This document shows, in pieces, positions 253 to 63,660 of a stretch of 64,000 bases of DNA. The position numbers and the translations under genes were made by a program. Position 1 is the stretch's first letter; each line of letters begins with the position of its first letter. Source of the stretch: Minisyncoccia bacterium (GTDB taxonomy: Bacteria > Patescibacteriota > Minisyncoccia > Phycocordibacterales > Zambryskibacteraceae); NCBI GenBank assembly GCA_041742965.1, contig JBGTNQ010000012.1:1379-65378 (forward strand). Direction: 5' to 3'. The notes under the pieces are model-generated. The model made no database searches. It was not told the origin of the DNA and worked only from the letters and a program-made list of their open reading frames with translations.

Positions 253-1026
253 CTATCTAAACACAACGGAACCACTATCAAACTTAAGGCCTAGCACTAG
301 CTCTCCGCGTGAAGTGAAGTGGTAGCTAGATGTGTTGGTGAGAAGCCCTGAAAATTCTGATTCATTAGACCCCTCACAGTACATTAAAGTCTGTACGATT
401 TCAGAGAAAACGATTAGACCATCTGTACCGACTGAGTAGTTGCCACCCATGCCGTTACAGTCGGTCGTCGCAGAAAATGTGCCATTATTGTTGAAGGTGA
501 TTGTGAATGCACCCGCAGTACTTGGCACTACCTCCCTTCCATCATTGTAAAGCGCCGATATCCAGGTCCAGCTTTTCATATCAAGTGTCATCCGAGAAGG
601 ATCTGCTTCGCCTTCAAAATTTTCCACTACCACACCCTTAGTTTGCAAATAGTGGTAAGGAGAATCACACGGCACGATAGAGCCGTCTTCTCCTACAACT
701 CCTCGCACCTCTATAATGTCACCAGATTTTAAAAGATAAACATCGCCAATTTTGTTGCTCTGATATGCAGGACAAAGTGGAAGCCCCATAGAAGGTATGG
801 CTATTGTTGAGAGCTTTCCACCATCCCCTTCCAAAATTATAAGTGCCGGACCATCAAAAGCAACTTGGTTTGTGTCAACAGCGAGCACTCTTCCAGACCT
901 CTCCACAGTCTCTCCCGCCACAAAACCAGCCTGTTTTTCCTGATAAATATAGCTGTTAAACAAAAAGAAACCTCCGACAAGAACGAGTGCAACTACTAAC
1001 AAATAAATTATTTTTTGATTTTTCAT
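253..1026 (-). CDS. secreted protein with C-terminal META/HslJ-like domain
   Basis: ORF of 257 aa with an N-terminal TM/signal (KIIYLLVVALVLVGGFF). The C-terminal block TITFNNNGTFSATTDCNGMGGNYSVGTDGLIVFSEIVQTLMYCEG is META-domain-like. Confidence 0.5.
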   Translation of the reverse strand: MKNQKIIYLLVVALVLVGGFFLFNSYIYQEKQAGFVAGETVERSGRVLAVDTNQVAFDGPALIILEGDGGKLSTIAIPSMGLPLCPAYQSNKIGDVYLLKSGDIIEVRGVVGEDGSIVPCDSPYHYLQTKGVVVENFEGEADPSRMTLDMKSWTWISALYNDGREVVPSTAGAFTITFNNNGTFSATTDCNGMGGNYSVGTDGLIVFSEIVQTLMYCEGSNESEFSGLLTNTSSYHFTSRGELVLGLKFDSGSVVFR

Positions 1027-1154
1027 AAAAGGTTTGACGATTCAACCTATAAATAATTACATAAAAACACCTAACCTTAAATGGCCGTGTATTTATCTAC
1101 CTCTCGGTTGATGAAAACCGTTGAAGTGTCCCAATGTTATTTTATGCAATTTTA

Positions 1155-1508
1155 TTATTCCTGTTCTTCCAATTTGACAGCGGCTTCAGGAGTAGAGACC
1201 GTCTTGCCCATTAGGAACATTTTGATAATCCCCCAAGCAATGAGCCAGTAAACGAGCATCGCCAGAAGCGTGGTCCATTCAAATATACTGCCTTCTACTC
1301 TAGTTATTCTAAAAACATTTAGAAAAGGGGCGACAAAAATATAAGTTGTGCCGTAGATAAAATCAGTAAAGCCAGCGCCCGGATTTGCACCCAACAACTT
1401 TAGTAGAAAACGAAATGCCAACAATGCTTCAAGGAGGCCGATGACATACCAGACGATTTGAGTACCACGAAAAATCGGTTTCGTGGTTGGAGAATTATAT
1501 GAATCCAT
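1155..1508 (-). CDS. YggT-family small membrane protein
   Basis: 117 aa with the YGGT-like core YGTTYIFVAPFLNVFRI...WTTLLAMLVYWLIAW and two TM helices. Confidence 0.65.
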   Translation of the reverse strand: MDSYNSPTTKPIFRGTQIVWYVIGLLEALLAFRFLLKLLGANPGAGFTDFIYGTTYIFVAPFLNVFRITRVEGSIFEWTTLLAMLVYWLIAWGIIKMFLMGKTVSTPEAAVKLEEQE

Positions 1509-1541
1509 ATTTTTTATACCTAATTATTTAATAAACTAAAT

Positions 1542-1694
1542 TTACTTTAATACATTTTTTCCACTAATAACGTTAACCAAAAAAATGATGACAGCTACAA
1601 CGAGGAGAATGTGAATAAGTCCCCCCAGTGTATAAGATGTCACCAAGCCTAGTGCCCATAAAACCAACAAAACGATTGCAATGGTTGTAAGCAT
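1542..1694 (-). CDS. lmo0937-family micro membrane protein (50 aa), missed by the ORF track
   Basis: Hand translation gives MLTTIAIVLLVLWALGLVTSYTLGGLIHILLVVAVIIFLVNVISGKNVLK. This is a typical lmo0937-type 2-TM micro-protein. A near-paralog lies at 32692..32820. Confidence 0.5.
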   Translation of the reverse strand: MLTTIAIVLLVLWALGLVTSYTLGGLIHILLVVAVIIFLVNVISGKNVLK

Positions 1695-1871
1695 ATTGTT
1701 TAAATATTTTTTAATTTTATAATTTGACCAATCAGCCCTGTAATATAAGACGCGGATGGATAGTTTTTATTTCAATAATCTCCAAATGGCCGTCAGTCCA
1801 ACACTAACGGCCCTTTTTCACATTCAAATTTACCTAGAGACACCCTCAAATATTATCTGGGTATTTCGTAT

Positions 1872-1985
1872 TACCGTGAGCAAAGACTGACAAGCGACAG
1901 GGGCCGTGAGGGGCGAAAAAGAATAGTACCCAACCACACTTCTCCTCACATATCTGCACCTTTTACTGTTGAAGCAGAATCCTTT
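1872..1985. repeat. direct repeat copy A (~110 bp), near-identical to 7028..7140
   Basis: ~100 nt identical (gcaaagactgacaagcgacaggggccgtgaggggcgaaaaagaatagtacccaaccacacttctcctcacatatctgcaccttttactgttgaagcagaa). It spans the last ~12 codons of the membrane-protein gene plus ~70 nt of 3' flank. Confidence 0.85.
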
Positions 1986-2389
1986 TTAAGAGATTTGAAA
2001 ATAATTAAAATTAAAGAAATTAATGTATACAAGATTGTCAGTAAAAAAATAACTGTGCCCTTTGTTATTGGAATAAAGTCCATCCCATGTGTTCTTGTTG
2101 GCAAAAAAGCAATAATTATCAAAGAGATAGGGACCATCCATATGGAAAAATTTCTCCAAGTTGTAAAAGTAGAATCTTTCAACTTATAAGTTATTACTGA
2201 GAAAATAAAAACTGAAATAAAAATGTAAGTAAAGCTTACTATTAAATCGCTGGTATAATAGCATTTACTTGCATAGTTAAAACAAATTCCAATATCTACA
2301 CTAAACATTGAAACCATATTGACTATAAAAAAAAGAAACGAAAAAAGAAACATCCGCTTCTTTGTAAACCACTCACCAACTTTATTCAT
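1946..2389 (-). CDS. polytopic membrane protein, unknown function
   Basis: 147 aa with four hydrophobic helices. The C-terminus KSLKKDSASTVKGADM is encoded inside repeat copy A, and a paralogous 3' fragment exists at 7101..7230. Confidence 0.55.
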   Translation of the reverse strand: MNKVGEWFTKKRMFLFSFLFFIVNMVSMFSVDIGICFNYASKCYYTSDLIVSFTYIFISVFIFSVITYKLKDSTFTTWRNFSIWMVPISLIIIAFLPTRTHGMDFIPITKGTVIFLLTILYTLISLILIIFKSLKKDSASTVKGADM

Positions 2390-2427
2390 AATTTAATTAT
2401 CTAATAATTTATTTTAAATATCAACCA

Positions 2428-5187
2428 CTACTTTAGCCCCACTGTTACAGAATAAACATTTCCATCATCTAGTTTCATAGAGAGTTTATACCAATAACCA
2501 AAAGCTAATCCCTTGGTACTCCAGTTGTAGATATACTGTTGGCTGGTAGTGTCCCATCTAAATTCTGTCCCCGTAGAAGCTTGCGAATTGTATGTAGATT
2601 CATCTATTGATGCACTCATCTTACTTCCCTTTTGTGGTGTAAGCCAAACTGGTGTCGAACTTGCTTGCACTATAACACCATCAAGATTTTTCAATTGAAA
2701 CTTTATAGGTATGGTACTTCCTCCCTTAAAGACACTCCGCGCTTGCTCTGAATGATAGGCCGTATCATTTATGGGTTGCAGGAATCCAGAAAACGCATAG
2801 TACGGTGCAAGAACCACTTCGCCCAATTTTGCATTTAAGTTTATATCACTGATTCCATCTCCATTTTTATCAATTTGAAGCACAGAACTTCCTACTTCAA
2901 ATCCTTCAGATATGTCCATTGTTGCTACTGTGGAAGTGGAAGAAGGTATGCCCTCAAATGAAGTGGAGTCAGTTATTGTATTTCCTTCCTGCTTATCTAC
3001 ATCAAGCGAGAAACTACCTTTTTCAAGACCTTGCATTTTGAGAGTATACGCGACACCAACAGGAACTGAAAGAAATTGCACTTCACCTATTTGTTTATAA
3101 GTAACATTTGGAATTTCTTCTCTAGTTTGCTTAGTTGCTGGATCTTGTCCTGTGTACCTTCCTTGTGTATCAATAATGCCAAGAGTTAGAGGGGAATGTA
3201 GAGTGTAGTGGAGACGTTCCCGGTCTGACACTAAAGTCGAAGTATTATTCACGACAATATTAGTAAGATTAATGAAACCTTCGCCTTTAATTTTAGATTT
3301 AATAAAATCACGAAGGTCCAATACTTCTAAAATATCTTTGTGGTTTGTTCTAAATCGGTCATTTCCGTTATACTGAGCTAAATCCACCCACCACCTCTCC
3401 ACATTTGGATTAGTATCCGACATCCATAAAGCGCTTGGTACGACAACCGTAGCATCACCATCAATTACCATGCGAGGTTTATAAGAAGCATATTCACCTC
3501 CAAGGAATTTCTTTTTCACTACATAATCTAATCCTGCAAGAGTCTCCTCTCCCCAACCCGCTACTTGTATCACTTTAGTATCTGGTGGCGGTACCCAATT
3601 GTCTAATACTTGATGCACTACTTCTGCTTGTAAATATAATTCGCTATTCCCGATGTTTGTACGTACAGTATCTTCATATGTTGGCTTCGTTCTTCCGTCG
3701 GTACCTAAAACATAATTTTTAAGCTCAGTCTCGTTTGAGACAAATACTCCGTATTGTGAAGTTTGTGGATCAAAAAATGGCTTGTTTTCAAAGGATACTA
3801 TCTTGCCTACCGCGAAAGCCGGATCAACTGTATTAAAATACCCCGCAGAAGGTAATAGGTTATACATAACCGGCATATTTTCGGATAACTGCCTAGATCT
3901 TTTTTTGTCCATCAAGAAACCAAATGGGCCGATATTAGTTCCGTGAAGTATGTTTGCCACAGCTTCCGGTGTACCGACTTGTGGCACGCCGACAAAAATT
4001 ATTCTGTCTATTTGATCATAAAGAGGATTGCTTGTATCTTTTAACTTTTGAATTAATGCCTTTGTGACCAATCCTCCGTTTGAGTGCGCAATAATTGTTA
4101 TTTTCCCAGTCCTAGAGCTTGCTTGAAGTTCTTCCAATTTTTTTAGAATAAAAGATTCTGAAAAATCCTGTTCTTCTGTATAAGATAAATTATCTCCAGA
4201 TACTTTGCCGTTGGTAACAATATCTTCTAGTGAAAGTCGCCAGTCGTAGGGTATAAAAGCATAATCATTTATGATTTCTTCCACATCTTTCCATTTTCTT
4301 AAGTCCTCAATGAATGATTGATAAATATTGGGATTGGGTAAAAGAGAGAGGTCAATGTTATCGACGATGCCAGCCTCATTTCCTTCGTCACTCACCCTCT
4401 GTGTATCGTTTTTAGTATGAATGTTATGAATGCTGTCCCCCTGATCATTTAAGCTAAGTAGGGAGTGCCTCGCGTCATTTTTGGAAACCCATAATTCATC
4501 ATCTGTAGAATTATATAACCTAGACCCCATAATCCCCGGCAGGAACATAACACTTGAGCAACACTCTACTAATTCTGTTCTATACCCAATGGCATATAGA
4601 GCTGACTGATTGTTGAAACAACCCGCGGAAGTTTTATCAGGAAACCAAGCGCAAGAAGTGTTTCCTGGAATGGGATCTCGATTTGGAAAACGGAACATAA
4701 TACCCAGATGCGTATCTAATATTTCTGGATCAAAAGTATCCGCCCCATATACGAAAGCATAAGCTGATCCTGATACAAGTAAATAATCTTCAAAAAAGAA
4801 TGAGATATTATTTGGGGCGCCACGATTTAACTCGGCCCAACTAAACGTATTTATGGAACACTGAATTAGAGTGTCGAGACGATCAAGGTTATCCAGGGTG
4901 TATAGACAGAATTGTATCGGTGGAATGTCTGGAAAACCTTCTGGGCCTGAGTTGTCAGCATAGACGACGGCTTCCATTACATTAAAAGTGAAGTCTGATT
5001 CTGGAATAAGTCTCATCCCTTTGTAAGAAAGGACTTTATTGGGGCGATCACCACTAAGATTAGAGAAGGTTACATTTCTAAAGTCGAAAAGATAGGTGGT
5101 GTCTTCAGCTTGAACATTCGTCAGACCAATTAAAAAAAGAAGCGTTAAGATAATGTAGGTCTGAGGAACTTTAGTAAAAAATTTCAT
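2428..5187 (-). CDS. large secreted alpha/beta-hydrolase-fold protein (lipase/esterase-like, GHSNGG nucleophile elbow)
   Basis: 919 aa with the signal peptide MKFFTKVPQTYIILTLLFLIGLTNVQA. The motif IIAHSNGGLVTKALIQKL matches a lipase class-2/PGAP1-like nucleophile elbow. Large multi-domain C-terminal region. Confidence 0.65.
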   Translation of the reverse strand: MKFFTKVPQTYIILTLLFLIGLTNVQAEDTTYLFDFRNVTFSNLSGDRPNKVLSYKGMRLIPESDFTFNVMEAVVYADNSGPEGFPDIPPIQFCLYTLDNLDRLDTLIQCSINTFSWAELNRGAPNNISFFFEDYLLVSGSAYAFVYGADTFDPEILDTHLGIMFRFPNRDPIPGNTSCAWFPDKTSAGCFNNQSALYAIGYRTELVECCSSVMFLPGIMGSRLYNSTDDELWVSKNDARHSLLSLNDQGDSIHNIHTKNDTQRVSDEGNEAGIVDNIDLSLLPNPNIYQSFIEDLRKWKDVEEIINDYAFIPYDWRLSLEDIVTNGKVSGDNLSYTEEQDFSESFILKKLEELQASSRTGKITIIAHSNGGLVTKALIQKLKDTSNPLYDQIDRIIFVGVPQVGTPEAVANILHGTNIGPFGFLMDKKRSRQLSENMPVMYNLLPSAGYFNTVDPAFAVGKIVSFENKPFFDPQTSQYGVFVSNETELKNYVLGTDGRTKPTYEDTVRTNIGNSELYLQAEVVHQVLDNWVPPPDTKVIQVAGWGEETLAGLDYVVKKKFLGGEYASYKPRMVIDGDATVVVPSALWMSDTNPNVERWWVDLAQYNGNDRFRTNHKDILEVLDLRDFIKSKIKGEGFINLTNIVVNNTSTLVSDRERLHYTLHSPLTLGIIDTQGRYTGQDPATKQTREEIPNVTYKQIGEVQFLSVPVGVAYTLKMQGLEKGSFSLDVDKQEGNTITDSTSFEGIPSSTSTVATMDISEGFEVGSSVLQIDKNGDGISDINLNAKLGEVVLAPYYAFSGFLQPINDTAYHSEQARSVFKGGSTIPIKFQLKNLDGVIVQASSTPVWLTPQKGSKMSASIDESTYNSQASTGTEFRWDTTSQQYIYNWSTKGLAFGYWYKLSMKLDDGNVYSVTVGLK

Positions 5188-5352
5188 TATTACGATGTTA
5201 CGTTAATAATGGATAGGATAATGGGGTCAACCACTATTCTTTTTTGGCATACAGAAATGGCGGCTGACCACATTTCCTTAAATCTTATAATAAAAAATAA
5301 CATCTCCCCGTTAATCTGACAACACTAGCTTGTAGATAGGTAAAATCTCTTC

Positions 5353-5631
5353 TTATTGCAGTCTTTTGCAAAACATTAGAATATCCTTTCCGCGAGGAGT
5401 GAGTTTGTGGCGAACACTCGGGCCATCACTCCTCTTCAAGACGAGACCGGCAATTGCCAGTTTTCGCACATGGTCAGAAGCATTCTCGTACCCAATATGC
5501 AAACGCTCGGAAATATCATCCACCGAAAGCTCTGGCTCTCTAAGTAAGAGATCGAGAATTTCAATACGGCGATGGTTTGCAAAGCCTTTCACAATTCGTT
5601 CTGTTTTGCGATAGTTTATTTTTTCCTTCAT
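5353..5631 (-). CDS. ArsR/SmtB-family HTH transcriptional regulator
   Basis: 92 aa; RRIEILDLLL...LSVDDISERLHIGYENASDHVRKLAIAGLV is a wHTH of the ArsR family. Its last 10 codons are encoded by the 30-nt motif at 5357..5387. Confidence 0.8.
   Translation of the reverse strand: MKEKINYRKTERIVKGFANHRRIEILDLLLREPELSVDDISERLHIGYENASDHVRKLAIAGLVLKRSDGPSVRHKLTPRGKDILMFCKRLQ
5357..5387. repeat. 30-nt motif copy 1 (attgcagtcttttgcaaaacattagaata) with TTGCA-N6-TGCAA inverted-repeat core
   Basis: Overlaps the ArsR C-terminal coding sequence and stop codon. Copies at 5667..5697 and 6969..6999. Confidence 0.8.
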
Positions 5632-5666
5632 ATTTTTACATTTTTACAATTCTATTTTTATGATAT

Positions 5667-5697
5667 CAGACTATTGCAGTCTTTTGCAAAATACTAG
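5667..5697. repeat. 30-nt motif copy 2
   Basis: Sits 36-66 nt upstream of the ArsR start and overlaps the metK stop codon. 2-3 mismatches to the other copies. Confidence 0.8.
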
Positions 5698-6626
5698 AAT
5701 GAAGAATGTTGGCTGAAATGACCCCAGTTAGAGGTGTCTTTGAACTTAACTTCATCCAATTTTAAATACTCCCGTATCCCACTTGGGCTAAGGTCATAAT
5801 CATTAATTTCTCTTTCTACCCCATCAATAATAGCCACGGCCATAACCGGCTTACTTTTGCCTATAGCATAAGCAAGTTTTGTATAGACTTCTTTTGCATT
5901 ATGTTTATTCAATAAATCAACAGCAATTCTCCGAGCCATATATGCGCCACTTCTATCTACTTTTGTATAATCTTTTCCAGAAAAAGAACCTCCACCAATT
6001 GGTATTTCGGGGCCATAATTATCTATTACCAGTTTCCTACCTGAAAGTCCTGTATCACTATCAAATCCGCCCAAGGACCATTCGCCAGATGGGTTGATAA
6101 GATACTCATCTGCTGAAATATTACTTTTTACAAGACCGAGCAATTCACTACTTTTTGTATTTTGAAAACTTGCGACGACCGTCGTCACTTTCCCAGCCTT
6201 TATGGTAACTTGAGTTTTGCCATCATAGGGATATATGGCAAATATTTTTTTACACAAGTCTCTAGCCAGAACATATTCAAGCGGTAAGTACTCTTTCGTT
6301 TCATTCGTAGCATAACCTTTCATTATTCCCTGATCTCCAGCGCCACCACTGTCTACTCCTTGCTTTATTGTAGTGCTTTGTAAAGCTATGCTTTTTATAA
6401 CCTTATAATTTTCACCCACAATACCATGCACAATATTTTCAATATTTGGTTTTGATTTTGAAGTCACCTCACCATTTATTGTTATCAAATTATGCCCACC
6501 CATTACTTCTATCGCCACACGACTTTCTTTGTCCCCTTCTAAATATGCGTCGAGTATACTGTCTGCAATAAAATCACAGATTTTATCTGGATGCATTGGG
6601 CTCACGAATTCACATGTTTTTTCCAT
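5694..6626 (-). CDS. metK: S-adenosylmethionine synthetase, short form
   Basis: Motifs HPDKICDFIADSILDA, GAGDQG and GGGSFSGKD are present. The 310-aa short MetK is typical of reduced genomes. Confidence 0.85.
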   Translation of the reverse strand: MEKTCEFVSPMHPDKICDFIADSILDAYLEGDKESRVAIEVMGGHNLITINGEVTSKSKPNIENIVHGIVGENYKVIKSIALQSTTIKQGVDSGGAGDQGIMKGYATNETKEYLPLEYVLARDLCKKIFAIYPYDGKTQVTIKAGKVTTVVASFQNTKSSELLGLVKSNISADEYLINPSGEWSLGGFDSDTGLSGRKLVIDNYGPEIPIGGGSFSGKDYTKVDRSGAYMARRIAVDLLNKHNAKEVYTKLAYAIGKSKPVMAVAIIDGVEREINDYDLSPSGIREYLKLDEVKFKDTSNWGHFSQHSSF

Positions 6627-6845
6627 AAAAACTAAAAATTCCTCTAATAAGAGGAAAGATTTTTTCTGCGTGGACTAGACGCAAGACATATCTTTCCTTC
6701 CGCCTAGGGCGGATGGTTGGATTTAGCACCTCAGCAAAATTGCTTTTTGATAGGTTGCTGTGGGGTCCACGAGCCAAATCTCGCTCTCCGTCCGTAGTTA
6801 CTACGAAGGAGGATACCTCCACTCTTGATCGAACTATTCAATTGT
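6627..6845 (-). promoter_or_regulatory. candidate SAM-I/IV-like riboswitch in the metK 5' leader, with an SD-sequestering expression platform
   Basis: The minus-strand RNA contains AUCAAGAGUGGAGG, GCAACC, GGUGCUAAAUCC and AAAGAUAUG blocks in S-box order. The 3' P1 strand GGAAAGAU is complementary to AUCUUUCC, which in turn pairs with the SD GAGGAA 10 nt upstream of the ATG. Confidence 0.4.
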
Positions 6846-6856
6846 CGAACACTGGC

Positions 6857-6866
6857 ATTATATCAC
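6857..6866 (-). promoter_or_regulatory. extended -10 promoter (TGaTATAAT) for the metK leader
   Basis: Minus strand reads tgtgaTATAATgccagtg, ~10 nt upstream of the riboswitch 5' block. Confidence 0.4.
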
Positions 6867-6968
6867 ATTTCCAACCATCAATCCGAAATGTCCGGTCGCG
6901 GTAGGTGAAATCGGACAAGACCCGCCTCCGCCAGTTGGCGGAGGCGGGCGGGTAAAGTCACACTTTTC

Positions 6969-6999
6969 TTATTGCAGTCTTTTGCAAAACACTAGAATA
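6969..6999. repeat. 30-nt motif copy 3
   Basis: Lies upstream of the metK promoter and just after the GC hairpin cccgcctccgcc-agtt-ggcggaggcggg (6921-6948). Shares a 36-nt run with copy 1. Confidence 0.8.
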
Positions 7000-7027
7000 A
7001 AGAACGGGGGTTGTCGGGAAGTTGTAT

Positions 7028-7140
7028 GACCGTAGCAAAGACTGACAAGCGACAGGGGCCGTGAGGGGCGAAAAAGAATAGTACCCAACCACACTTCTCC
7101 TCACATATCTGCACCTTTTACTGTTGAAGCAGAAACTTTT
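7028..7140. repeat. direct repeat copy B (~110 bp)
   Basis: See copy A. Identity decays into divergent coding sequence past ~7140. Confidence 0.85.
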
Positions 7141-7230
7141 TTAAGAGATTTATGGATGATAAAAATAAGAGAGAAAATAGCATAGGCAATTAAAATTCCT
7201 ATAGCAATCAGATCTTTTTGTATATGAAAA
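7101..7230 (-). pseudogene. 3' fragment of a paralog of the 1946..2389 membrane-protein gene (no start codon)
   Basis: Encodes ...IQKDLIAIGILIAYAIFSLIFIIHKSLKKVSASTVKGADM*. The upstream reading frame runs through a terminator hairpin and has no in-frame ATG after it. Confidence 0.45.
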
Positions 7231-7280
7231 AATCCGTCTCCTGCATACCCACGCCCTCGTTTTGGAGGCGGGGTGGAATT

Positions 7281-7322
7281 ATTTTTAAAAAAGAAATCGC
7301 GCAGTGCTTTTGGCACTGCGCG
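7281..7322 (-). terminator. Rho-independent terminator
   Basis: Perfect 10-bp GC stem cgcgcagtgc/gcactgcgcg, 5-nt loop, then atttcttttttaaaaa on the minus strand, directly after the small ORF's stop. Confidence 0.7.
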
Positions 7323-7354
7323 AAGACCTCGAGTCCGACATGAATTCGGAAAGA

Positions 7355-7567
7355 CTACCACGGCATCTTGATCTTGCCGATCTGGGTCTCTCCACCCAGA
7401 ACGGTACCGTCTCCGGAGATGCGAGTCTTGTCGACTCCACCGGGAATGCCCCGCATGAAGTCAAAGTGACCCCCACCGTGAGACGGATTGTTCAGGTCGT
7501 TGTGGATCTTGCTGTTCGGATCCGAAAACGGAAACGACCCGCCAAGATTTGGGATCTTGCCATCCAT
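7355..7567 (-). CDS. small Gly-rich hypothetical protein (~70 aa) in a GC-rich islet
   Basis: SD GGAGGTGA sits 5 nt upstream of the ATG. Product MDGKIPNLGGSFPFSDPNSKIHNDLNNPSHGGGHFDFMRGIPGGVDKTRISGDGTVLGGETQIGKIKMPW. Local GC is clearly above the flanks and a strong terminator follows. No recognisable family. Confidence 0.45.
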   Translation of the reverse strand: MDGKIPNLGGSFPFSDPNSKIHNDLNNPSHGGGHFDFMRGIPGGVDKTRISGDGTVLGGETQIGKIKMPW

Positions 7568-7729
7568 TTTTCTCACCTCCTTTCCTGTGTAAAAATGTAG
7601 AACTGCTCTATTTAAAGATTAGCCAAAAGTAGTCTTGAGGTCAAGTACCCTCCTAAAAAAATCCAATATAATGAACAGCCCATCACCAGACGACCTTTAG
7701 GGGCTTGTTTATTAGTGTAAAATAGAGTT

Positions 7730-13862: not shown

Positions 13863-13960
13863 ATAATACTACGTCGTCACCCCTCGCTTCGCTCGGGATG
13901 GTTAAAATATAAAACACTTAGGATAAGCATTAAGATTTTATACCAGCTGCCGGACTTGGA

Positions 13961-14112
13961 CCGTGAGTACACTATCGGTCACAAGTTCTGGCTTACTATC
14001 CAGACTCGCGACCCCGTCTCGTCCGCCCAAGGCGGACTGCGACTTTCGATTCCAATCTCGGCTAGAAATGATGCTTCGCGCAGACTGCATTTAGCAGTCT
14101 TTGCGAATCATT
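13961..14112 (-). repeat. tRNA-3'-end-associated element E6 (152 nt), flanked by 15-nt direct repeats of the tRNA-Gln 3' end
   Basis: gctgccggacttgga occurs at 14113-14127 (tRNA T-arm/acceptor) and again at 13946-13960. The element carries agtccgccttgggcggacgagacggggtcgcgag and ends ...aacttgtgacc next to the distal repeat. Confidence 0.6.
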
Positions 14113-24834: not shown

Positions 24835-27027
24835 TTGACCCTAATGGCAAAAGGTAATGGAAAAAAACTTCTGATTGTCGAGTCGCCGGCGAAAGCAAAA
24901 ACAATCTCAAAATATCTAGACGGCGAATATGAAGTAGTCGCTTCTATTGGGCATGTTCGTGATTTACCTAAAACAAATAAAAAGGCAATAGATATTGAGG
25001 GAGGCTTCATTCCACACTATGAAATATCTAAAGGTAAAGAAAAAGTAATAAGTGAAATAAGAAAATTAGCAGGAGGAGCAGAAGATGTCATCCTGGCCAC
25101 AGACCCCGACCGTGAAGGAGAGGCTATAGCTTGGCATATTAGTGAGGCTGTGGGCCTTAAAAATCCAAAGAGGGTAGTCTTCCACGAAATCACCAAAGAG
25201 GCGGTAACAGAGGCAATAAAGCATCCACGGGATATTGATTTAAACCTTAAGATTGCCCAAGAGGCGCGCCGAGTACTGGACCGACTAGTTGGATACGACC
25301 TATCTGGACTTATTTGGAAAAAGGTCAGATACGGCCTTTCTGCTGGCCGTGTCCAATCTCCTGCACTCCGCATCATCATGGAGCGAGAGAGAGAAATCCG
25401 AGCTTTTAAACCTGAAACATTCTGGACAATATCCGCTGACTTTACCACAGAGAAAAATCTAATGATCACCTTGATCTGTGATGAAGAACCTAGAGAAGAA
25501 AAGGGAGTTATAAATATTTTAGACACAGCCAAAAAAGAACCTTGGTCAATTATTGATATAAAAGAGACAACAGTAAAAAGATCTCCTCGACCCCCCTTCA
25601 TCACTTCAACACTTCAACAAACAGCCAGTTCTAGATTAGGGTTTTCTCCTTCACGGACAATGGGTGTGGCACAAAAGCTTTATGAAGCTGGACTCATTAC
25701 ATATATGCGTACCGACAGCACCAACTTAGGGTCTCAGGCCAAAAAACAGATTGAGGAAGTAATAAAAAACAAGTTTGGAAAACAATACTACGAACCACAC
25801 TCTTATAGTAAGAAAAGTAAAAATGCTCAAGAAGCTCATGAAGCAATAAGACCCACAGACTTCGGGAAAGAAACTGGTGGTATAAATGAAGAACAGAAAA
25901 AACTCTATAATCTCATCTGGGCCAGAACAGTTGCCTCTCAGATGGTCTCCGCCGATACTCTTCGTACAAAAATAAGTGCCAATGTTAAAAGTGCTTCAAT
26001 ACCTAATTTTTCTATAACTGGATCCCGTGTCATATTTGATGGGTGGCTCATCGCTGATCCAAGGGCACGACAAGAGGATGTGGAGCTCCCAAAATTATTG
26101 AAAGGCGAAAATATCATACTCAAAGATATAAAAAGTGAAGAAAAGGAGACTACCCCACCCGCCAGATATTCAGAAGCTGGACTCGTAAAAGAACTTGAAA
26201 AAAGAGGCATAGGTAGACCTTCAACATACGCCTCAATAATAAAAACTATTATAGATAGAGGCTATGTACTAAAAGAACAGCGTGCGCTCGTACCGACGGA
26301 CACAGGGGATGTGGTGAGTTCTTTTCTCGAAGGAAATTTCGGAGACTATATAAGCGACACCTTTACCGCAGAGATGGAGAACAAGCTTGATGATATTGCT
26401 ATTGGTAAAAGAGAGTATGTAAAGACACTTTCTGATTTTTACAAACCATTTTTGAAAGATATAAAATCTAAAGATAAGTTGGAGAAACTAACAAATATGG
26501 GCGTGGCTGATGCAAAGTGGAAGTGTCCAAAATGCGGAAGTGGAATGATTATTAAGCTCGGAAAAAATGGCCGTTTCTTATCTTGTGATAAATTCCCTGA
26601 CTGCACAGGAGCACGAACTATAGATGGTGAAGAGATAATGGGGCCCAAAGATACGGGAGAACTTTGCCCAGAATGTGGTAAGGCTAACTTAGTAGAGCGC
26701 GACGGCCGATTTGGAAGATTTATAGCATGTGGCAGATACCCAAAATGTAAATTTGTAAAAGAAGACCCAGAAGCCAGAAAAAAACTACTAACAGGTGTTA
26801 AGTGCCCTGTATGTAAGGACGGAGAAATGATGGAAAGAAGGGGACGATTTGGTATTTTCTATTCCTGTAGTAACTATCCCAGTTGTAAAAATGCAATAAA
26901 AGCTAAGCCAACAGGAAACATGTGCCCTATGTGCAATTCCCTCATGATGGATGGCACGAAAACTATACCAGAACGCTGTAGTAACAAGAGCTGTGCAAAC
27001 CACAACCCGCATAAACTAATGAAGTAG
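24835..27027 (+). CDS. topA: DNA topoisomerase I with C-terminal zinc ribbons
   Basis: TOPRIM motifs LLIVESPAKAKTI and DPDREGEAIAWH, the catalytic region, and four C4 zinc ribbons. Confidence 0.9.
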   Translation: MTLMAKGNGKKLLIVESPAKAKTISKYLDGEYEVVASIGHVRDLPKTNKKAIDIEGGFIPHYEISKGKEKVISEIRKLAGGAEDVILATDPDREGEAIAWHISEAVGLKNPKRVVFHEITKEAVTEAIKHPRDIDLNLKIAQEARRVLDRLVGYDLSGLIWKKVRYGLSAGRVQSPALRIIMEREREIRAFKPETFWTISADFTTEKNLMITLICDEEPREEKGVINILDTAKKEPWSIIDIKETTVKRSPRPPFITSTLQQTASSRLGFSPSRTMGVAQKLYEAGLITYMRTDSTNLGSQAKKQIEEVIKNKFGKQYYEPHSYSKKSKNAQEAHEAIRPTDFGKETGGINEEQKKLYNLIWARTVASQMVSADTLRTKISANVKSASIPNFSITGSRVIFDGWLIADPRARQEDVELPKLLKGENIILKDIKSEEKETTPPARYSEAGLVKELEKRGIGRPSTYASIIKTIIDRGYVLKEQRALVPTDTGDVVSSFLEGNFGDYISDTFTAEMENKLDDIAIGKREYVKTLSDFYKPFLKDIKSKDKLEKLTNMGVADAKWKCPKCGSGMIIKLGKNGRFLSCDKFPDCTGARTIDGEEIMGPKDTGELCPECGKANLVERDGRFGRFIACGRYPKCKFVKEDPEARKKLLTGVKCPVCKDGEMMERRGRFGIFYSCSNYPSCKNAIKAKPTGNMCPMCNSLMMDGTKTIPERCSNKSCANHNPHKLMK

Positions 27028-27031
27028 ATTT

Positions 27032-27158
27032 GGAAGTGCGCAGTCTTCACTGCATACGCGCAAGTTTTCGTGAGACGGAGGCATATTTTTTCAGCAGAAA
27101 AAATGCCGAGTCGGGGTCGCAGAACCCCGCCCCTGACGAGGGGCGGGGTATTTGTGAC
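27032..27158 (+). repeat. element E1 (~127 nt) inserted at the topA 3' end, flanked by 75-nt direct repeats (26957..27031 and 27159..27233)
   Basis: The repeat cgaaaactatacc...gaagtagattt, which includes the topA stop codon, occurs twice. The insert carries ttttttcagcagaaaaaa and ccgagtcggggtcgcag and ends atttgtgacc. Confidence 0.65.
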
Positions 27159-27233
27159 CGAAAACTATACCAGAACGCTGTAGTAACAAGAGCTGTGCAA
27201 ACCACAACCCGCATAAACTAATGAAGTAGATTT

Positions 27234-28229
27234 TTATATTGAAAAGTTGCTGACAGAATAAAGAGAATCATCTTGGTTCTCTTCTTTTTGTTTTTCCTCG
27301 TCTGAGCGATCGTCTACTGGCCCTACCAGGGTTTCATCTTTCTCTACTGGCAAATTTTGAGCTTCTTCAAATTTATTGAGAACTTCATTTGGATTTTTCT
27401 GAGAATTACTTTTGATAATAGCTAGAAGACTCCTTAGGTCGTCGCTATTGAAAAAATCTATCAAAATCTTTCCCCCGACATCCTTTCGTTCAATCTGAAC
27501 CCTGGTGCCGAGCGCCTCACGAAGCTTTTCTTCAAGATCGATAATCTCTGGATCAATCGCCAGTTCCTTTTTTCTCACCCTATCAAAAGCAATCCTGCGT
27601 GCAATACCCTCTGCTTCACGCACGGTAAGTTTTTTCAAAGTAATTTCTTTAAACAAAACCAGCTGCTCCTCTGGTCTATCAGTAAGCATCAAAAGAGGTC
27701 TAGTATGACCTTCTGAGAGTTTGCCCTGACTAACTGCATTCAACATCTCTTCTGGCAAAGAAAGTAGGCGTAATGTATTAGACACATACTCTCTACTTTT
27801 GCCAACTTTCTGTGCAATAGTGACATGCTTAAAACCAAACTCATTTGCTAGGCGCTCAAATGCTCTGGCTCTGTCAATTGGATTCAAATCTTCACGCTGG
27901 ATATTTTCAATAATAGCCAACTCAAGTTTCATCAAATCCGTATCGTCTCCAGTTTTTATAAGGACGGGAACCTGAGAAAGACCAGCGATACGAGAAGCCC
28001 TGAGTCTTCGCTCTCCAGCGATGAGTTCGTATTTCACACCGAGACCGCCGTCTTCTTTTTGAAATTCCTTGCGAGTGACGACTAGGGCCTGTAAAACTCC
28101 GTATTGGCGAATAGAGTCAGCCAGACTCTGAAGTTCTGGTTCGCTGAACTCTCGACGAGGCTGAAAGGGGTTTGGTTCAATTTTGTCTACTTCAACCCAG
28201 AATATTGAGTCATTATAGAATTGGGACAT
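27234..28229 (-). CDS. parB: ParB/Spo0J chromosome-partitioning protein
   Basis: ParB box GERRLRA, an HTH and a C-terminal acidic tail. Confidence 0.85.
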   Translation of the reverse strand: MSQFYNDSIFWVEVDKIEPNPFQPRREFSEPELQSLADSIRQYGVLQALVVTRKEFQKEDGGLGVKYELIAGERRLRASRIAGLSQVPVLIKTGDDTDLMKLELAIIENIQREDLNPIDRARAFERLANEFGFKHVTIAQKVGKSREYVSNTLRLLSLPEEMLNAVSQGKLSEGHTRPLLMLTDRPEEQLVLFKEITLKKLTVREAEGIARRIAFDRVRKKELAIDPEIIDLEEKLREALGTRVQIERKDVGGKILIDFFNSDDLRSLLAIIKSNSQKNPNEVLNKFEEAQNLPVEKDETLVGPVDDRSDEEKQKEENQDDSLYSVSNFSI

Positions 28230-28242
28230 GGGGATATTATAA

Positions 28243-28270
28243 CCTACAACCTACAACCTACAACCTACAA
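28243..28270. repeat. tandem heptamer (acctaca)x4
   Basis: acctacaacctacaacctacaacctaca lies immediately upstream of the parB start. Confidence 0.8.
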
Positions 28271-28344
28271 TAAATGATCCTTGTATTGTTTGTATTTGAA
28301 TTTTGTTGTAAGTTGTAAGTCGTTAGTAGTTATTTTGCTTAGTT

Positions 28345-28428
28345 GCCGGAGTGGTGGAATGGTATACACGAACGACTCAAAATCGTTTGCTGAAAGGCAT
28401 GGAGGTTCAAATCCTCTCTCCGGCACCA
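28345..28428 (+). tRNA. tRNA-Leu (anticodon CAA), CCA encoded
   Basis: Acceptor GCCGGAG/CTCCGGC, long variable arm, anticodon stem AACGA/TCGTT with loop CTCAAAA, T-arm GGTTCAAATCC. Confidence 0.8.
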
Positions 28429-28496
28429 ATACTCTTTTGGGCCCTAAAAAGGCCAAGTCTACTCGCTTTTTTACCTCTTGCTTTTTTCTTTAATTT

Positions 28497-29393
28497 ATGG
28501 TAATATTAAATTATATGGAGATATTCAAGAAAATACATAACTTCCTTGGAAATAAAAGTGCTTTTATAGCGGGGCTTTTGGCCGTGCTCATTATCCCTAT
28601 ATCTTTCTCTTTCGCAGAATGGAAAAATGATTCTCTCCCCTATCCGCCTGATTTATATGCAATGTGTTTTGACGGTATAGACAATGACGAAGATGGAAGG
28701 GTGGATCTCGATGACCCTGATTGTCCTAAATGCTACGATAGAATCGACAACGATGGAGACGGTCTAATTGATGAAGAGGATCCTGATTGTCCAAACTATG
28801 TTGGTGAAAAGAAAAAAACTTTCGGAGAAATACTAGGGGCGTTTTTCTCAGATGGCGGATCAGTAAACTCTGGGGGCTCTATTGAAGGTGGTGGACCTAT
28901 CACCTCTGGTGGATCTATTGGAAGTAGTGGTTCTATAGTCTCTTGTAACGAAGTGCGCGCAGAACTTGTAAGGAACCCTGATAAAAATGGACCTAGATAT
29001 ATCTATGAATTTGAATGTGTAAATGAAATTGATTTAGGGGGACGTATACGCTCTGGCAGTTCTATAGACTCTGGAGGAAGAATCAGAAGCGGAGGAAGCA
29101 TTAGCTCTAGTGAAACAGTATCATCCGGTGGTTCTGTACAAAGTGGAGGATCAATAAATTCTAGTGGAGCAATTGGAGAAGGAGGAAATATTTCTTCTGG
29201 AGGGACCATATCAGCTGAAGGAACTATAAATAGTGGTGGTCAAATATCTTCCAGTGGAGCAGTATCATCCGGTGGATATATTCAATACGCCGGTTCTATC
29301 TACTCCGGAGGATCAGTGAGCTCTGGTGGCTCAATAAACTCTGGAGGTTCTGTGGGCTTTGGGGGATCAATTTACTCTGGGGGTACTATATAA
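28497..29393 (+). CDS. secreted protein with Asp-rich Ca-binding-like motifs and tandem SGGSIxS octapeptide repeats
   Basis: N-terminal TM/signal, then DGIDNDEDGRVDLDDPDCP and DNDGDGLIDEEDPDCP (thrombospondin-type-3-like). About 25 copies of a GGSI/GGRI repeat follow. Confidence 0.55.
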   Translation: MVILNYMEIFKKIHNFLGNKSAFIAGLLAVLIIPISFSFAEWKNDSLPYPPDLYAMCFDGIDNDEDGRVDLDDPDCPKCYDRIDNDGDGLIDEEDPDCPNYVGEKKKTFGEILGAFFSDGGSVNSGGSIEGGGPITSGGSIGSSGSIVSCNEVRAELVRNPDKNGPRYIYEFECVNEIDLGGRIRSGSSIDSGGRIRSGGSISSSETVSSGGSVQSGGSINSSGAIGEGGNISSGGTISAEGTINSGGQISSSGAVSSGGYIQYAGSIYSGGSVSSGGSINSGGSVGFGGSIYSGGTI

Positions 29394-30345: not shown

Positions 30346-30416
30346 GGGCGATTAGTTTAGTGGTAGAACAGCGGTCTCCAAAACCGCTGGCGAGGGTTCG
30401 ATTCCTTCATCGCCCG
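30346..30416 (+). tRNA. tRNA-Trp (anticodon CCA)
   Basis: Acceptor GGGCGAT/ATCGCCC, anticodon stem GCGGT/ACCGC with loop CTCCAAA, T-arm GGGTTCGATTCC. Confidence 0.8.
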
Positions 30417-30420
30417 CAAT

Positions 30421-30548
30421 GATTCACGAAAACAGCCGGGGGCTGTTTGAGTGATTTATCAATGCGAGGTGGATGAGGAATCGAAAGCCGGAGGCAGACG
30501 TGCCGAGGCGGGGTCGAGAGATTTTTCAGCAGAAAAATACTCGTGACC
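30421..30548 (+). repeat. element E2 (128 nt) between 21-nt direct repeats of the tRNA-Trp 3' end (30400..30420 and 30549..30569)
   Basis: gattccttcatcgcccgcaat, running from the T-loop to the discriminator plus 4 nt, is duplicated. The insert carries ggaatcgaaag, ccgaggcggggtcgagag and atttttcagcagaaaaa and ends tactcgtgacc. Confidence 0.65.
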
Positions 30549-30588
30549 GATTCCTTCATCGCCCGCAATCTAGTTATATTTATATATC

Positions 30589-35912: not shown

Positions 35913-35953
35913 CAAAGCCCCACTTGGAAACTTAGTTTCCAAGTGGGGCTTTG
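35913..35953. repeat. palindromic element CACTTGGAAAC family, copy 1 (20+20 bp perfect hairpin)
   Basis: caaagccccacttggaaact-t-agtttccaagtggggctttg. On the minus strand a U-tract follows, so it is terminator-like. Confidence 0.7.
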
Positions 35954-36120
35954 AGGTATTGAAAATCTCAGTGTTTATACTGAGCGGACTAAGCGAGTCG
36001 GAGTATCGCCGGGAAGGATTCGGTCAGGAGTTTTCGTCTACTGACAAAACTCACAACCCTGCCTCCCTCGCCTTCGCTCGGTCCGGCTTTCTCGTCTCTA
36101 CCCGGACAGCACCGACTTGC

Positions 36121-36153
36121 AAAAAAGCTGAGTCCTCATGACTCAGCTTTTTT
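36121..36153. terminator. bidirectional terminator hairpin
   Basis: aaaaagctgagtc-ctca-tgactcagcttttttt. Confidence 0.65.
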
Positions 36154-36161
36154 TAGCAAGT

Positions 36162-43645: not shown

Positions 43646-43717
43646 AGGCGAAGCTCTGCAAAAGCTTTATTCACGGGTTCGATTCCCGTCCACGCCTCAA
43701 GTAAAAAGTATGACTTT
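43646..43717 (+). tRNA. tRNA-Cys (anticodon GCA)
   Basis: Acceptor GGCGTGG/CCACGCC, anticodon stem AAGCT/AGCTT with loop CTGCAAA, T-arm GGGTTCGATTCCCG. Confidence 0.8.
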
Positions 43718-43727
43718 AGTGTGATAT

Positions 43728-43870
43728 CTTTTACTTTGATGAGGACGGAAGTATGCAAATTTATTTGCATACTTAGGGAATCGAAAGGCGCAGTGATATT
43801 TTGTGAGTTCACAAAATTACGAGCCGTGGTCACGACCGAGCCGAGCGACGGCGAGGTGAGAGTTGTGACC
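43728..43870 (+). repeat. element E3 (~143 nt) between 27-nt direct repeats of the tRNA-Cys 3' end (43701..43727 and 43871..43897)
   Basis: gattcccgtccacgcctcaagtaaaag is duplicated. The insert carries gggaatcgaaagg, ttttgtgagttcacaaaa and gtggtcacgacc and ends gagttgtgacc. Confidence 0.65.
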
Positions 43871-43945
43871 GATTCCCGTCCACGCCTCAAGTAAAAGTGT
43901 GGCTTTGTAAGACATCTTTTACTTAGTTGGTGTGAAGAAATATAT

Positions 43946-44107: not shown

Positions 44108-44379
44108 CAGAAGCTACAGCAACCTGCCCTGCGGCAGGTTTTGTGCTTCTGTGCGGACCGGAGCCATGTTTTGTGACCACACAAAACAGACGAGGTGGGG
44201 TCGAGAAATTTTGTGAGCGACGGCGAACAAAATATTCGTGACCACAAAGGACGCAATTGGCATGATCAAGATTTTTCCGTCAGGAAAAATACTTGTGACC
44301 ACAATCCTGTGCGAACCATACTTCCCCTCTCACAAACAATACTTGTGACCCGAGTTAAATATGATAAAGTATTTCTCAT
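44108..44379 (+). repeat. E4: tandem array of four short units, each ending in ...GTGACC, with AT-stem hairpins, between tRNA-Lys and tRNA-Leu
   Basis: GTGACC at 44173, 44238, 44295 and 44345, each followed by acacaaaa / acaaagg / acaatcc (tRNA-trailer-like). Internal cgaggtggggtcgag, ttttgtgaccacacaaaa and atttttccgtcaggaaaaat. Confidence 0.6.
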
Positions 44380-44461
44380 GCTGGGGTGGCGGAATTGGTA
44401 TACGCGCTAGTCTTAGGAACTAGTGGAGAAATCCATAGGAGTTCAAGTCTCCTCCCCAGCA
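44380..44461 (+). tRNA. tRNA-Leu (anticodon TAG)
   Basis: Acceptor GCTGGGG/CCCCAGC, anticodon stem CTAGT/ACTAG with loop CTTAGGA, long variable arm, T-arm GGAGTTCAAGTCTCC. Confidence 0.8.
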
Positions 44462-44466
44462 CAAAC

Positions 44467-44595
44467 GAAAGTAGTGAGTTTGTGCTCTAGGCGCATTTTT
44501 TGCTTTGCAAAAAGAGCAGAGACTTGAAGGCCGGAGTCCGCCTTGGGCGGACGAGGCGGGGTCGCGGACTTTTTCAGCAGAAAAAGATCTGTGAC
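44467..44595 (+). repeat. element E5 (129 nt) between 22-nt direct repeats of the tRNA-Leu(TAG) 3' end (44445..44466 and 44596..44617)
   Basis: aagtctcctccccagcacaaac is duplicated. The insert carries ggagtccgccttgggcggacgaggcggggtcgcggac and ctttttcagcagaaaaag and ends atctgtgacc. Confidence 0.65.
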
Positions 44596-44666
44596 CAAGT
44601 CTCCTCCCCAGCACAAACTCACTACTTTCGTTTGTGCTGTATAAAATTTGACTTTTTGCTTGTTTT

Positions 44667-59673: not shown

Positions 59674-59700
59674 CCACTTGGAAACTCGGTTTCCAAGTGG
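59674..59700. repeat. palindromic element CACTTGGAAAC family, copy 2
   Basis: ccacttggaaac-tc-ggtttccaagtgg, preceded by the hairpin ataggcttagcctat and followed by gggggattttcat. Confidence 0.7.
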
Positions 59701-59801
59701 GGGATTTTCATGATTCATCATTCGTCATTCAATATTCGCCATTCGGCCTATGCCGAATGGCTCTTTACATCCATCCCTTCCCCTGCTAATATTAGCCACC
59801 T

Positions 59802-63450: not shown

Positions 63451-63479
63451 GCCACACATAGGGACTAACCTATGTACCT

Positions 63480-63504
63480 CACTTGGAAACTCGGTTTCCA
63501 AGTG
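63480..63504. repeat. palindromic element CACTTGGAAAC family, copy 3
   Basis: cacttggaaac-tcg-gtttccaagtg, preceded by the hairpin catagggactaacctatg and followed by actcgattttcat. Confidence 0.7.
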
Positions 63505-63660
63505 ACTCGATTTTCATTCCTTATCCTCCCCTCCTAAAAGCTAGGAGCTCTACGCTATAAACTACCTATATTCCTCATTCTTCCTCGCCATCTTTATTAT
63601 TTTTCCCATTTCTGATATCCTATCTTTTACTTGTCATTCTTTATTCATCATTCTTTATCT

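Follow-up and report, generated by a model that had tools for sequence, protein, structure and literature searches.

A candidate guide-directed mobile unit without a gene of its own at the 3' ends of topA and tRNA genes in Patescibacteria

Islands carried by integrases into tRNA and transfer-messenger RNA (tmRNA) genes are flanked by direct repeats of the 3' segment of the gene, and the island supplies the gene end, as described, together with their sublocation classes, by Williams 2002 (cited in PMC9897764). Here we report on E1, a 127-nt insert behind topA, the DNA topoisomerase I gene, of a Minisyncoccia bacterium (Patescibacteriota; assembly GCA_041742965.1, contig JBGTNQ010000012.1, positions 1,379 to 65,378), and on its relatives. 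The whole stretch analysed, 64,000 nt, is called the window. E1 and its relatives resemble tRNA/tmRNA islands, prophages and cis-mobilizable elements (CIMEs) in their site-specific insertion into the 3' part of a gene, in the replacement 3' end and in the displaced partial copy left as a direct repeat; tandem accretion and the preference for tRNA and tmRNA genes are shared as well. They differ in size (units of 130-200 nt against kilobases), in having no integrase or other open reading frame (ORF), and in a body that is a conserved, structured, RNA-like three-way junction with a target-complementary guide; no attP form or recombinase was identified. Taking borders and mechanism together, we lean towards reading E1 as an integrated copy of a small, non-coding, site-specific mobile unit directed by its guide. 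A mobile unit with the borders given below is quite probable, and for the guide-directed mechanism, proposed from sequence comparison, the chances stand about even.

Other described systems come close. The bridge (seek) RNAs of IS110/IS1111 and the guides of IS200/IS605 are likewise encoded by the element and set the target, and their specificity can be changed by base changes in the guide. Those insertion sequences encode a DEDD or HUH transposase, use guide segments of 4-7 nt and neither duplicate nor replace a gene end. IS110 in addition has separate donor and target loops, a duplicated 2-nt core and an adjacent DEDD gene, whereas the element here has one guide, no adjacent ORF and a duplicated gene end. 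It also differs from IS200/IS605 ends and the TnpB omega RNA by its long repeats, the lack of tnpA/tnpB and the lack of any omega-RNA-type match in Rfam. Group I and II introns share a non-coding, catalytic-RNA-like design with internal guide pairing beside the insertion point, a patchy presence as in homing to one conserved site, and a phenotypically neutral insertion. In contrast to these introns, the element is far smaller, lacks a group I/II core (no Rfam match) and the 5' GUGYG / 3' AY or terminal-G signatures, and pairs its guide on the 3' side only; splicing is not needed, since the upstream gene is already complete through the duplicate gene end.

The direct repeat at the topA 3' end

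The gene was identified as topA because its product contains Toprim, Topoisom_bac and three Zn_ribbon_Top1 domains; its start is likely the ATG at 24844, and exact look-up of the protein sequence returned no database record. A repeat search of the window returned a 75-nt direct repeat at exactly the two places given in a preliminary description of this DNA, 26957-27031 and 27159-27233. The copies are 100% identical and 202 nt apart from start to start, and such a match cannot be due to chance in 64 kb. The features of the locus are the following.

24844..27027, + strand: topA, DNA topoisomerase I, 727 aa (ORF list; Pfam)
26957..27031, + strand: repeat copy 1, the functional topA 3' end (repeat search)
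27032..27158, + strand: E1 body, non-repeated, 127 nt, ending GTGAC (covariance-model match 27063-27166)
27036..27057, + strand: P0 hairpin, GUGCGCAGU-CUUC-ACUGCAUAC (read by eye)
27063..27070, + strand: E1 guide AGUUUUCG, the complement of CGAAAACU, the 8 nt with which both repeat copies begin (covariance-model alignment; unit fold)
27074..27112, + strand: P2 (G-A-C / G-U-C), internal loop GGAG / CGA and hairpin hp1 (covariance-model alignment)
27115..27159, + strand: P3 (GGUCG.. / ..UGACC) with hairpin hp2 (covariance-model alignment)
27159..27233, + strand: repeat copy 2 (repeat search)
27234..28229, - strand: parB, convergent with topA, context outside the element (ORF list, Pfam)

Copy 1 begins at the second base of a Thr codon and comprises the last 23 topA codons (..TKTIPERCSNKSCANHNPHKLMK*), the TAG stop (27025-27027) and four further bases (ATTT). 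The right end of copy 2 directly abuts the parB stop codon. The E1 body contains no ORF, and the region is strongly structured (z -7.1). Its last hairpin, at 27131-27158 (CCCCGCCCC-UGACGA-GGGGCGGGG, followed by UAUUUGU), qualifies by its score as an intrinsic terminator too and may end topA transcription ahead of the convergent parB.

The repeat is perfect and shorter than a read, as expected if a 75-mer had been duplicated through mis-joining of the assembly. The chance of such an artefact is nevertheless negligible. An independent Logan contig from run SRR28170462 equals window positions 27204-29138 at 100% and ends exactly 30 nt (k-1) inside copy 2. A de Bruijn graph breaks k-1 into a true repeat whose right end has two different continuations, and the break of the contig is the expected behaviour at a real repeat, which confirms it. 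Furthermore, independent JGI metagenome assemblies contain about 10 related lineages with a topA tail, the element and a second topA tail arranged at this same codon, several of the lineages recovered from two or three samples each, and six sister elements within the window share the layout. A 24-mer spanning the right junction found no match when searched in metagenomes.

The topA site in related lineages

The preliminary description had suggested comparing the topA 3' ends of related genomes and had proposed that site-specific integration regenerating the gene end, not transposition, produced the repeat. Scanning metagenomes with the topA C-terminus yielded 80 loci (loci outside the window carry the prefix L). 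With the covariance model introduced below, an element was found directly after topA in about 10 distinct lineages, whose proteins are 61-83% identical to that of the window, whereas about 35 lineages are empty at the same codon. Two of the filled lineages, L124 and L128, carry tandem units. All insertions fall at one codon, ..ATGGAnGGnA|C[AGT]AAAAC.., and this site resembles a T-loop (GGCA|CGAAAAC versus GGTT|CGAATCC).

The informative pair is L133 (empty) and L130 (filled), whose topA DNA is 92% identical. L133 reads ..GGCA|CGAAGACAATTCC.., encoding ..HKLEKAKIDAKEK*. Past the same junction, L130 continues into a foreign, window-like tail (CAAAAACGATACC.., ..HKLMK*), followed by P0, guide, scaffold and GUGAC; behind GUGAC, the L133 tail (HKLEKAKIDAKEK*) is found again as a decayed orthologue, and the flank downstream of it is that of L133. 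The identity between the two loci breaks abruptly, exactly at the junction N|C. In L135, L137 and L145, too, copy 1 belongs to the element type and copy 2 to the resident type, and the two units in L124 carry gene-end copies of different types. L130/L133 together with L135, L137 and L145 show that the upstream copy came with the element and that the downstream copy is the displaced resident end. Judged from these comparisons, the mobile unit would consist of the replacement gene end from the C, P0, the guide, P2, and P3 through GUGAC, and copy 2 would be the displaced resident end. The different origin of the two L130 copies and the identity break thus bear out the proposed integration, and the repeat is best read as the outcome of gene-end replacement rather than of a transposase-type duplication, a reading that the comparison supports.

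Direct repeats of the 3' segment in which the element's copy completes the gene, as in integrative elements, are found in the 75-nt repeat and in L130, L135, L137 and L145; a recombinase gene in the element or consistently linked to it was found neither around 121 copies nor in the window. A transposon or miniature inverted-repeat transposable element would have terminal inverted repeats and a short target-site duplication of fixed length; E1 has no terminal inverted repeats, the repeats range from 17 to 75 nt, and the two L130 copies differ in origin. A diversity-generating retroelement differs in that the repeats here are 100% identical, no reverse transcriptase is present and tRNA genes are the usual target.

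By analogy with L130, L135, L137 and L145, copy 1 of the window would be the part of the mobile unit that replaced the gene end. Copy 2, by analogy with the related lineages, would be the displaced original topA 3' end, here still identical to copy 1. Because the two are identical, the event may be recent, or may have taken place within one population, or the lineage may stand near the origin of a topA-specific unit.

In some lineages the insertion alters the C-terminus of TopA. The resident end ..HKLEKAKIDAKEK becomes ..HKLMK (L130 versus L133; L122), which rewrites about the last 20 residues, including half of the last zinc ribbon.

The element family, its fold and its guide

The family was followed with an exact pattern derived from three window copies, scanned over GTDB species-representative genomes, and with a covariance model built solely from tRNA-associated copies (27 of equal length). 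Among the matches listed, the exact pattern occurs in at least 119 stretches/genomes, almost all of them Patescibacteria (Saccharibacteria, Paceibacterota, Nomurabacteria, Kaiserbacteria and others) with a few Elusimicrobia. The housekeeping genes of the window are likewise nearest to Patescibacteria loci and its proteins are short, and on these grounds the sequence itself would be placed in this group. The covariance model gave 130 matches in 100 of the listed genome loci. A same-strand tRNA gene of one of 18 identities precedes 101 of 124 copies by 20-271 nt (median about 62), and the gap between tRNA and scaffold is never larger than 271 nt. In L011, L025, L053, L054, L086 and L096 the copies stand behind tmRNA-like 3' ends (..GGTTCGATTCCCGCCATCTCCAC..), so ssrA is a target as well. 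No description of a GUGAC-ended element was found in the literature, and the family is widespread and apparently undescribed.

In the window, the covariance model finds seven copies (E 2.4e-34 to 1.3e-7). E1 is matched at 27063-27166 with 46.7 bits (E 2.8e-14) and with all helices present, by a model that contains no topA copy. The insert had earlier been assigned to a GTGAC(C)-ended family not confined to tRNA targets; the match places it there, and the tmRNA genes and topA extend the range of targets accordingly. E1 has the P2/P3 junction of the family, a 5' guide (AGUUUUCG) that pairs with CGAAAACU, and an intact upstream target sharing this sequence. The other six copies follow tRNA genes, namely those for tRNA-Trp, tRNA-Cys, tRNA-Lys, tRNA-Leu(tag), tRNA-Gln and tRNA-Tyr.

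30399..30569, + strand: E2 at tRNA-Trp; copy 1 30399-30420 (from T-loop C56), body 30421-30547, copy 2 30548-30569 (covariance model 101.9 bits; unit fold z -8.1)
43680..43896, + strand: E3 at tRNA-Cys; copy 1 43680-43706, body 43707-43869, copy 2 43870-43896 (covariance model)
44109..44349, + strand: E4 after tRNA-Lys; scaffold to 44242, then two remnants (covariance model 28.3 bits, E 1.3e-7)
44444..44618, + strand: E5 at tRNA-Leu(tag); copy 1 44444-44466, body 44467-44595, copy 2 44596-44618 (covariance model 77.9 bits)
13979..14112, - strand: E6 after tRNA-Gln; copy 2 interrupted by a 13-nt mini-hairpin (covariance model 63.6 bits)
36023..36161, - strand: E7 after tRNA-Tyr; ends CTGAC (covariance model 42.4 bits)

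In these copies GTGAC is followed by a copy of the upstream gene end, and the repeat always starts at C56 of the T-loop (GGTT|CGA..). Fresh repeats at tRNA loci measure 20-22 nt, within an overall range of 17-75 nt. Copy 2 accumulates substitutions and indels at tRNA loci, and no bias of these mutations towards the guide-binding bases was detected there (5.7 differences per position in the first 7 nt and equally 5.7 beyond them). At topA, a mutation of copy 2 in the guide-binding bases was noted anecdotally in L128.

Several window copies show peculiarities of their own. The two short remnants behind E4 (44243-44349, ending at 44299 and 44349) keep only the last hairpin (hp2) and GTGAC, each followed by a CACAA.. 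sequence, one of which resembles the 3' half of another tRNA; they look like old copies, internally deleted or 5'-truncated, stacked at one site. In E6, at 13960-13978 on the - strand, the junction C is followed by GAAA and a 3-bp mini-hairpin before the displaced tRNA 3' half resumes. The same variant was seen in L006, L012, L025, L026, L031, L054, L057, L059, L062, L102 and L113, and the stems show compensatory changes (GUG-UACU-CAC, GCG-UACU-CGC, CUG-UAAU-CAG); it may be a scar, an extra module or a shifted crossover. At tRNA-Leu(tag), the terminator hairpins that follow copy 1 (44457-44487) and copy 2 (44609-44639) of E5 are exact reverse complements of each other, with the same stem and an inverted loop. 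Such an inverted loop is a signature of template switching in a palindrome.

A non-mobile RNA module of the host, such as a terminator or 3'-processing signal behind tRNA genes, could be inherited vertically and acquire its repeats by local slippage or template switching. The occupancy of 6 of the 8 tRNA genes in the window, the conservation across phyla, the template-switch signature at E5 and the terminator-like hp2 of E1 all agree with such a module. It is very improbable all the same: presence at topA is patchy among close lineages, a foreign gene end with an abrupt identity break at the junction lies upstream of the element, tandem units carry different versions of the gene end, and one scaffold stands behind 18 tRNA identities, tmRNA and topA.

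The fold deduced from the 27 equal-length copies is a three-way junction ending in GUGAC. It consists of helix PA, in which the segment 5' of UCG-AAAG pairs with the sequence after GUGAC, the joining segment GAAA, P2 with hp1, the joining segment GG, and P3 with hp2. P2 comprises 3 bp and encloses the internal loop GGAG / CGA and the variable hp1; P3 comprises 9 bp (GGUCG.. / ..UGACC) and encloses the variable hp2. Of the alignment cells, 92.6% are paired, compared with 75.6% after shuffling and 36-47% with slid partners. Compensatory cells number 134 against 45.7 expected, a value reached in 0 of 500 shuffles. Among the 14 pairs of P3, which are 98.9% paired, 8 show compensatory changes, and the middle pair of P2 covaries (C:G in 19, A:U in 5 and U:A in 3 of 27). 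About 30 junction nucleotides are invariant. One G.U pair in P3 is invariant too, which points to the sense-strand RNA as the functional form. In E1, the junction C at 27159, with which copy 2 begins, takes part in the last base pair of P3.

As a single folded RNA, the E1 unit (26957-27158) reaches -77.1 kcal/mol (z -6.05), with P2 and P3 as the family model has them. In this predicted fold the 5' end pairs with the guide, closing the three-way junction so that the 5' and 3' ends abut; the tRNA-Trp unit (E2) is predicted to fold likewise (z -8.1). By eye, P0 keeps compensatory changes in the topA subfamily, as in L137 (GUAUGCAGC-CUGC-GCUGCAUAC) and copy 2 of L124 (GUACAAAGC-CUUC-GCUUUGUAC), a reading made without statistics, and a hairpin similar to P0 is also visible in tRNA copies.

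The guide, immediately 5' of the scaffold, is the complement of the target over the first 7-22 nt. In E1, the covariance-model alignment pairs 27063-27070 with 27159-27166, and the unit fold pairs the same segment with 26957-26964. Across the 101 tRNA copies, contiguous pairing of the guide with the 3' half of the cognate tRNA averages 9.1 nt (maximum 22 nt), compared with 4.8 +/- 0.21 nt in 5000 permutations. Copy 1, upstream and functional, is a better partner for the guide (9.1) than copy 2, downstream (6.5). In many tRNA copies the complementarity extends into the tRNA trailer, and in other copies, the topA subfamily included, a short guide is preceded by P0, a conserved hairpin of 9 bp. 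Among the topA lineages, synonymous changes in copy 1 are matched by changes in the guide, the pairs being GUUUUUG with CAAAAAC, UGGUUUUAG with CUAAAACCA, GAUGGUUUUUG with CAAAAACCAUC, and UAGUUUUUG with CAAAAACUA. The U-rich guide GUUUUUG can pair with CAAAAAC and, through G.U, also with the resident CGAAGAC, and this tolerance of G.U pairs at the resident site fits an RNA guide.

Two other roles for the guide were considered and rejected. It could serve as a primer-binding site pairing with the CCA end of a tRNA, as in retroviruses; the guides stop at or before the discriminator base or enter the genomic trailer, and do not reach CCA. It could also belong to a CRISPR-associated transposon, Cas12k or TnpB guide RNA with a 3' guide; the G.U pairs make the sense strand the structured one, and on it the guide lies 5' and is antisense to the target.

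How the element may move

We propose that the unit at 26957-27158 (202 nt) comprises, in this order, a replacement gene 3' end from the fixed C, P0, a guide of at least 8 nt, P2 with its hairpin, and P3 with its hairpin and the GUGAC end. It would insert immediately 5' of the C in the guide-pairing target, that is, in ..GGNN|CGA.. of tRNA and tmRNA T-loops and in ..GGCA|CGAAAAC of topA. The folded transcript, or a folded single strand, would select the site through two arms, GGUC.. and the guide, that pair on either side of the junction, and strand exchange at N|C would be carried out by a factor outside the element, either a host or trans-acting enzyme, or by the RNA itself. The resident gene end would be pushed downstream of GUGAC as copy 2, where it is free to decay, and topA would stay intact because the unit carries its own gene end.

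A bolder version holds that this is a new catalytic or enzyme-recruiting RNA that programmes its own insertion site through the guide and protects the host gene with a spare 3' end. It would be a protein-less, reprogrammable, site-specific mobile element and would, in Patescibacteria, have spread to topA, tmRNA and most tRNA genes. We put this forward tentatively, as somewhat less probable than not.

Several observations weigh against a guide-directed unit. In the tandem cases, element 2 of L124 and element 2 of L128, the guide fits its presumed target poorly. That the guide perfectly matches copy 1 close by might reflect quasipalindrome correction, in which replication switches templates between inverted repeats, and not targeting; such switching between the inverted copies could maintain the match even with no selection on it. 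Both topA copies of the window have the same sequence, and the imported one cannot be told from the resident one there. The G.U covariation favours RNA yet is also compatible with folded single-stranded DNA. No excised form, enzyme or transcript was seen, and how the element moves is inferred throughout. Finally, a serine-recombinase island, described below, shares its tRNA with two mini-elements and leaves room for a protein partner encoded elsewhere.

We searched for such a partner around the copies. The 605 ORFs within 2.5 kb of 121 copies clustered into housekeeping families only, without a recurrent recombinase, transposase, reverse transcriptase or other mobile-element ORF. A Pfam scan of the 30 window ORFs revealed no integrase, transposase, tnpA/tnpB or reverse transcriptase. 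In viral contigs, the strict pattern gave 0 matches and the relaxed pattern 4, of which the model confirmed none and none lay close to a tRNA; no phage-borne form was found.

Homologues of a large serine recombinase occur at three loci only, none of them inside the element. In L010 (CAYRER010000017.1, about 1000-7600), an island of about 6.5 kb between a tRNA and two identical tandem mini-elements encodes a large serine recombinase (Resolvase + Recombinase + Zn_ribbon_recom), an HTH protein and a DUF4325 protein. Its right junction (..CATAA|GTTCGAAAT..) has no scaffold, and the homologues in L061 and L062 lie upstream of the tRNA, outside the element. This recombinase was therefore rejected as the enzyme of the element, and the island appears to be a separate element sharing the T-loop hot spot.

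These data bear on an alternative in which the element is a miniature non-autonomous unit (a CIME-like attL-attR remnant) moved by a tyrosine or serine integrase encoded elsewhere, with the fold as an arm or accessory site and an incidental guide. Repeats from the T-loop to the 3' end (20-22 nt when fresh) and an element-supplied gene end are the very geometry of integrase-borne tRNA/tmRNA islands, tandem accretion is seen, and in L010 a large serine recombinase island occupies the same tRNA. However, no integrase adjoins any of the roughly 130 copies, and the L010 island and the L061 and L062 homologues stand apart from the element in the ways just given. Protein sites in double-stranded DNA would leave the compensatory changes, the invariant G.U and the cognate-specific guide pairing unexplained. 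The presumed overlap moreover differs between element (CAAAAAC) and resident site (CGAAGAC), which a tyrosine recombinase would tolerate poorly and a U-rich RNA guide would tolerate through G.U. We consider movement by an integrase in trans unlikely.

Known RNA families offered no assignment. Against Rfam 15, the window scanned in full at gathering thresholds and three element regions scanned at relaxed ones gave tRNAs only, and in the element regions hammerhead, hairpin, twister, pistol, hatchet and HDV-like ribozymes had no match at E up to 10. By-eye comparison with the hammerhead, the hairpin ribozyme, k-turn / box C/D RNA and retrons gave partial resemblance only (tandem G.A beside hp1; two arms flanking the junction), and these candidates were set aside. 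The likeness to a retron ncRNA (non-coding RNA) is superficial, consisting of the guide, a conserved G, two hairpins and a 3' partner; the difference lies in seven element copies within 64 kb and no reverse transcriptase in the window.

The fold also raises the possibility of an element acting at the RNA level, comparable to viroids or retrozymes. A small ribozyme might excise itself at N|C and GUGAC|C, perhaps as a circle, and return through guide-chosen RNA/DNA recombination with a reverse transcriptase acting in trans. With small self-cleaving ribozymes and plant retrozymes the element shares the three-way junction at the processing site, two substrate arms, a genomic copy longer than the unit within repeats, and the lack of a protein. 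The predicted closure of the unit RNA with abutting termini, about 30 invariant nucleotides and two arms on both sides recalls hammerhead and hairpin ribozymes. The G.U pairs mark the sense strand as the functional RNA, no protein is linked to the element, and the remnants at 44243-44349 keep only the 3' end. On the other hand, the putative core, with its joining segments GAAA and GG and its GGAG/CGA internal loop, differs from those ribozymes, no model of a known self-cleaving ribozyme or intron matches it even at relaxed thresholds, and no reverse transcriptase was found near any copy or in the window. Such a self-excising RNA is about as improbable as an integrase in trans.

If the guide-directed unit is real, it would be a very small mobile element (130-200 nt) without a gene of its own, whose site is picked by base pairing and whose target gene stays functional. 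It would explain the partial tRNA copies behind many Patescibacteria tRNA genes, a source of annotation errors, and each small genome would contain dozens of copies of what would be a new family of structured RNAs. Whether RNA can direct site-specific DNA insertion, alone or with a housekeeping enzyme, is a long-standing question that would become directly testable. The topA case would mean that the family can move to protein-coding genes and replace a C-terminal coding segment, and a guide that can be rewritten from the tRNA T-loop to the look-alike site in topA would be of interest for genome engineering.

Three other repeats were noted in the window. A perfect palindrome of 29 nt (CCACTTGGAAACT.AGTTTCCAAGTGG) occurs three times at gene ends (35920-35948, 59674-59702 and 63479-63507); it probably represents either a bidirectional terminator common to these sites or a further small repeat family. 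A direct repeat of 139 nt with 93% identity lies at 1879-2017 and 7034-7172, 5 kb apart. A 44-nt motif (TATTGCAGTCTTTTGCAAAA..TAGAAT) is present three times upstream of genes near a SAM-synthetase-like ORF (5354-5397, 5672-5715 and 6970-7013) and may be a promoter/operator or a remnant of gene duplication.

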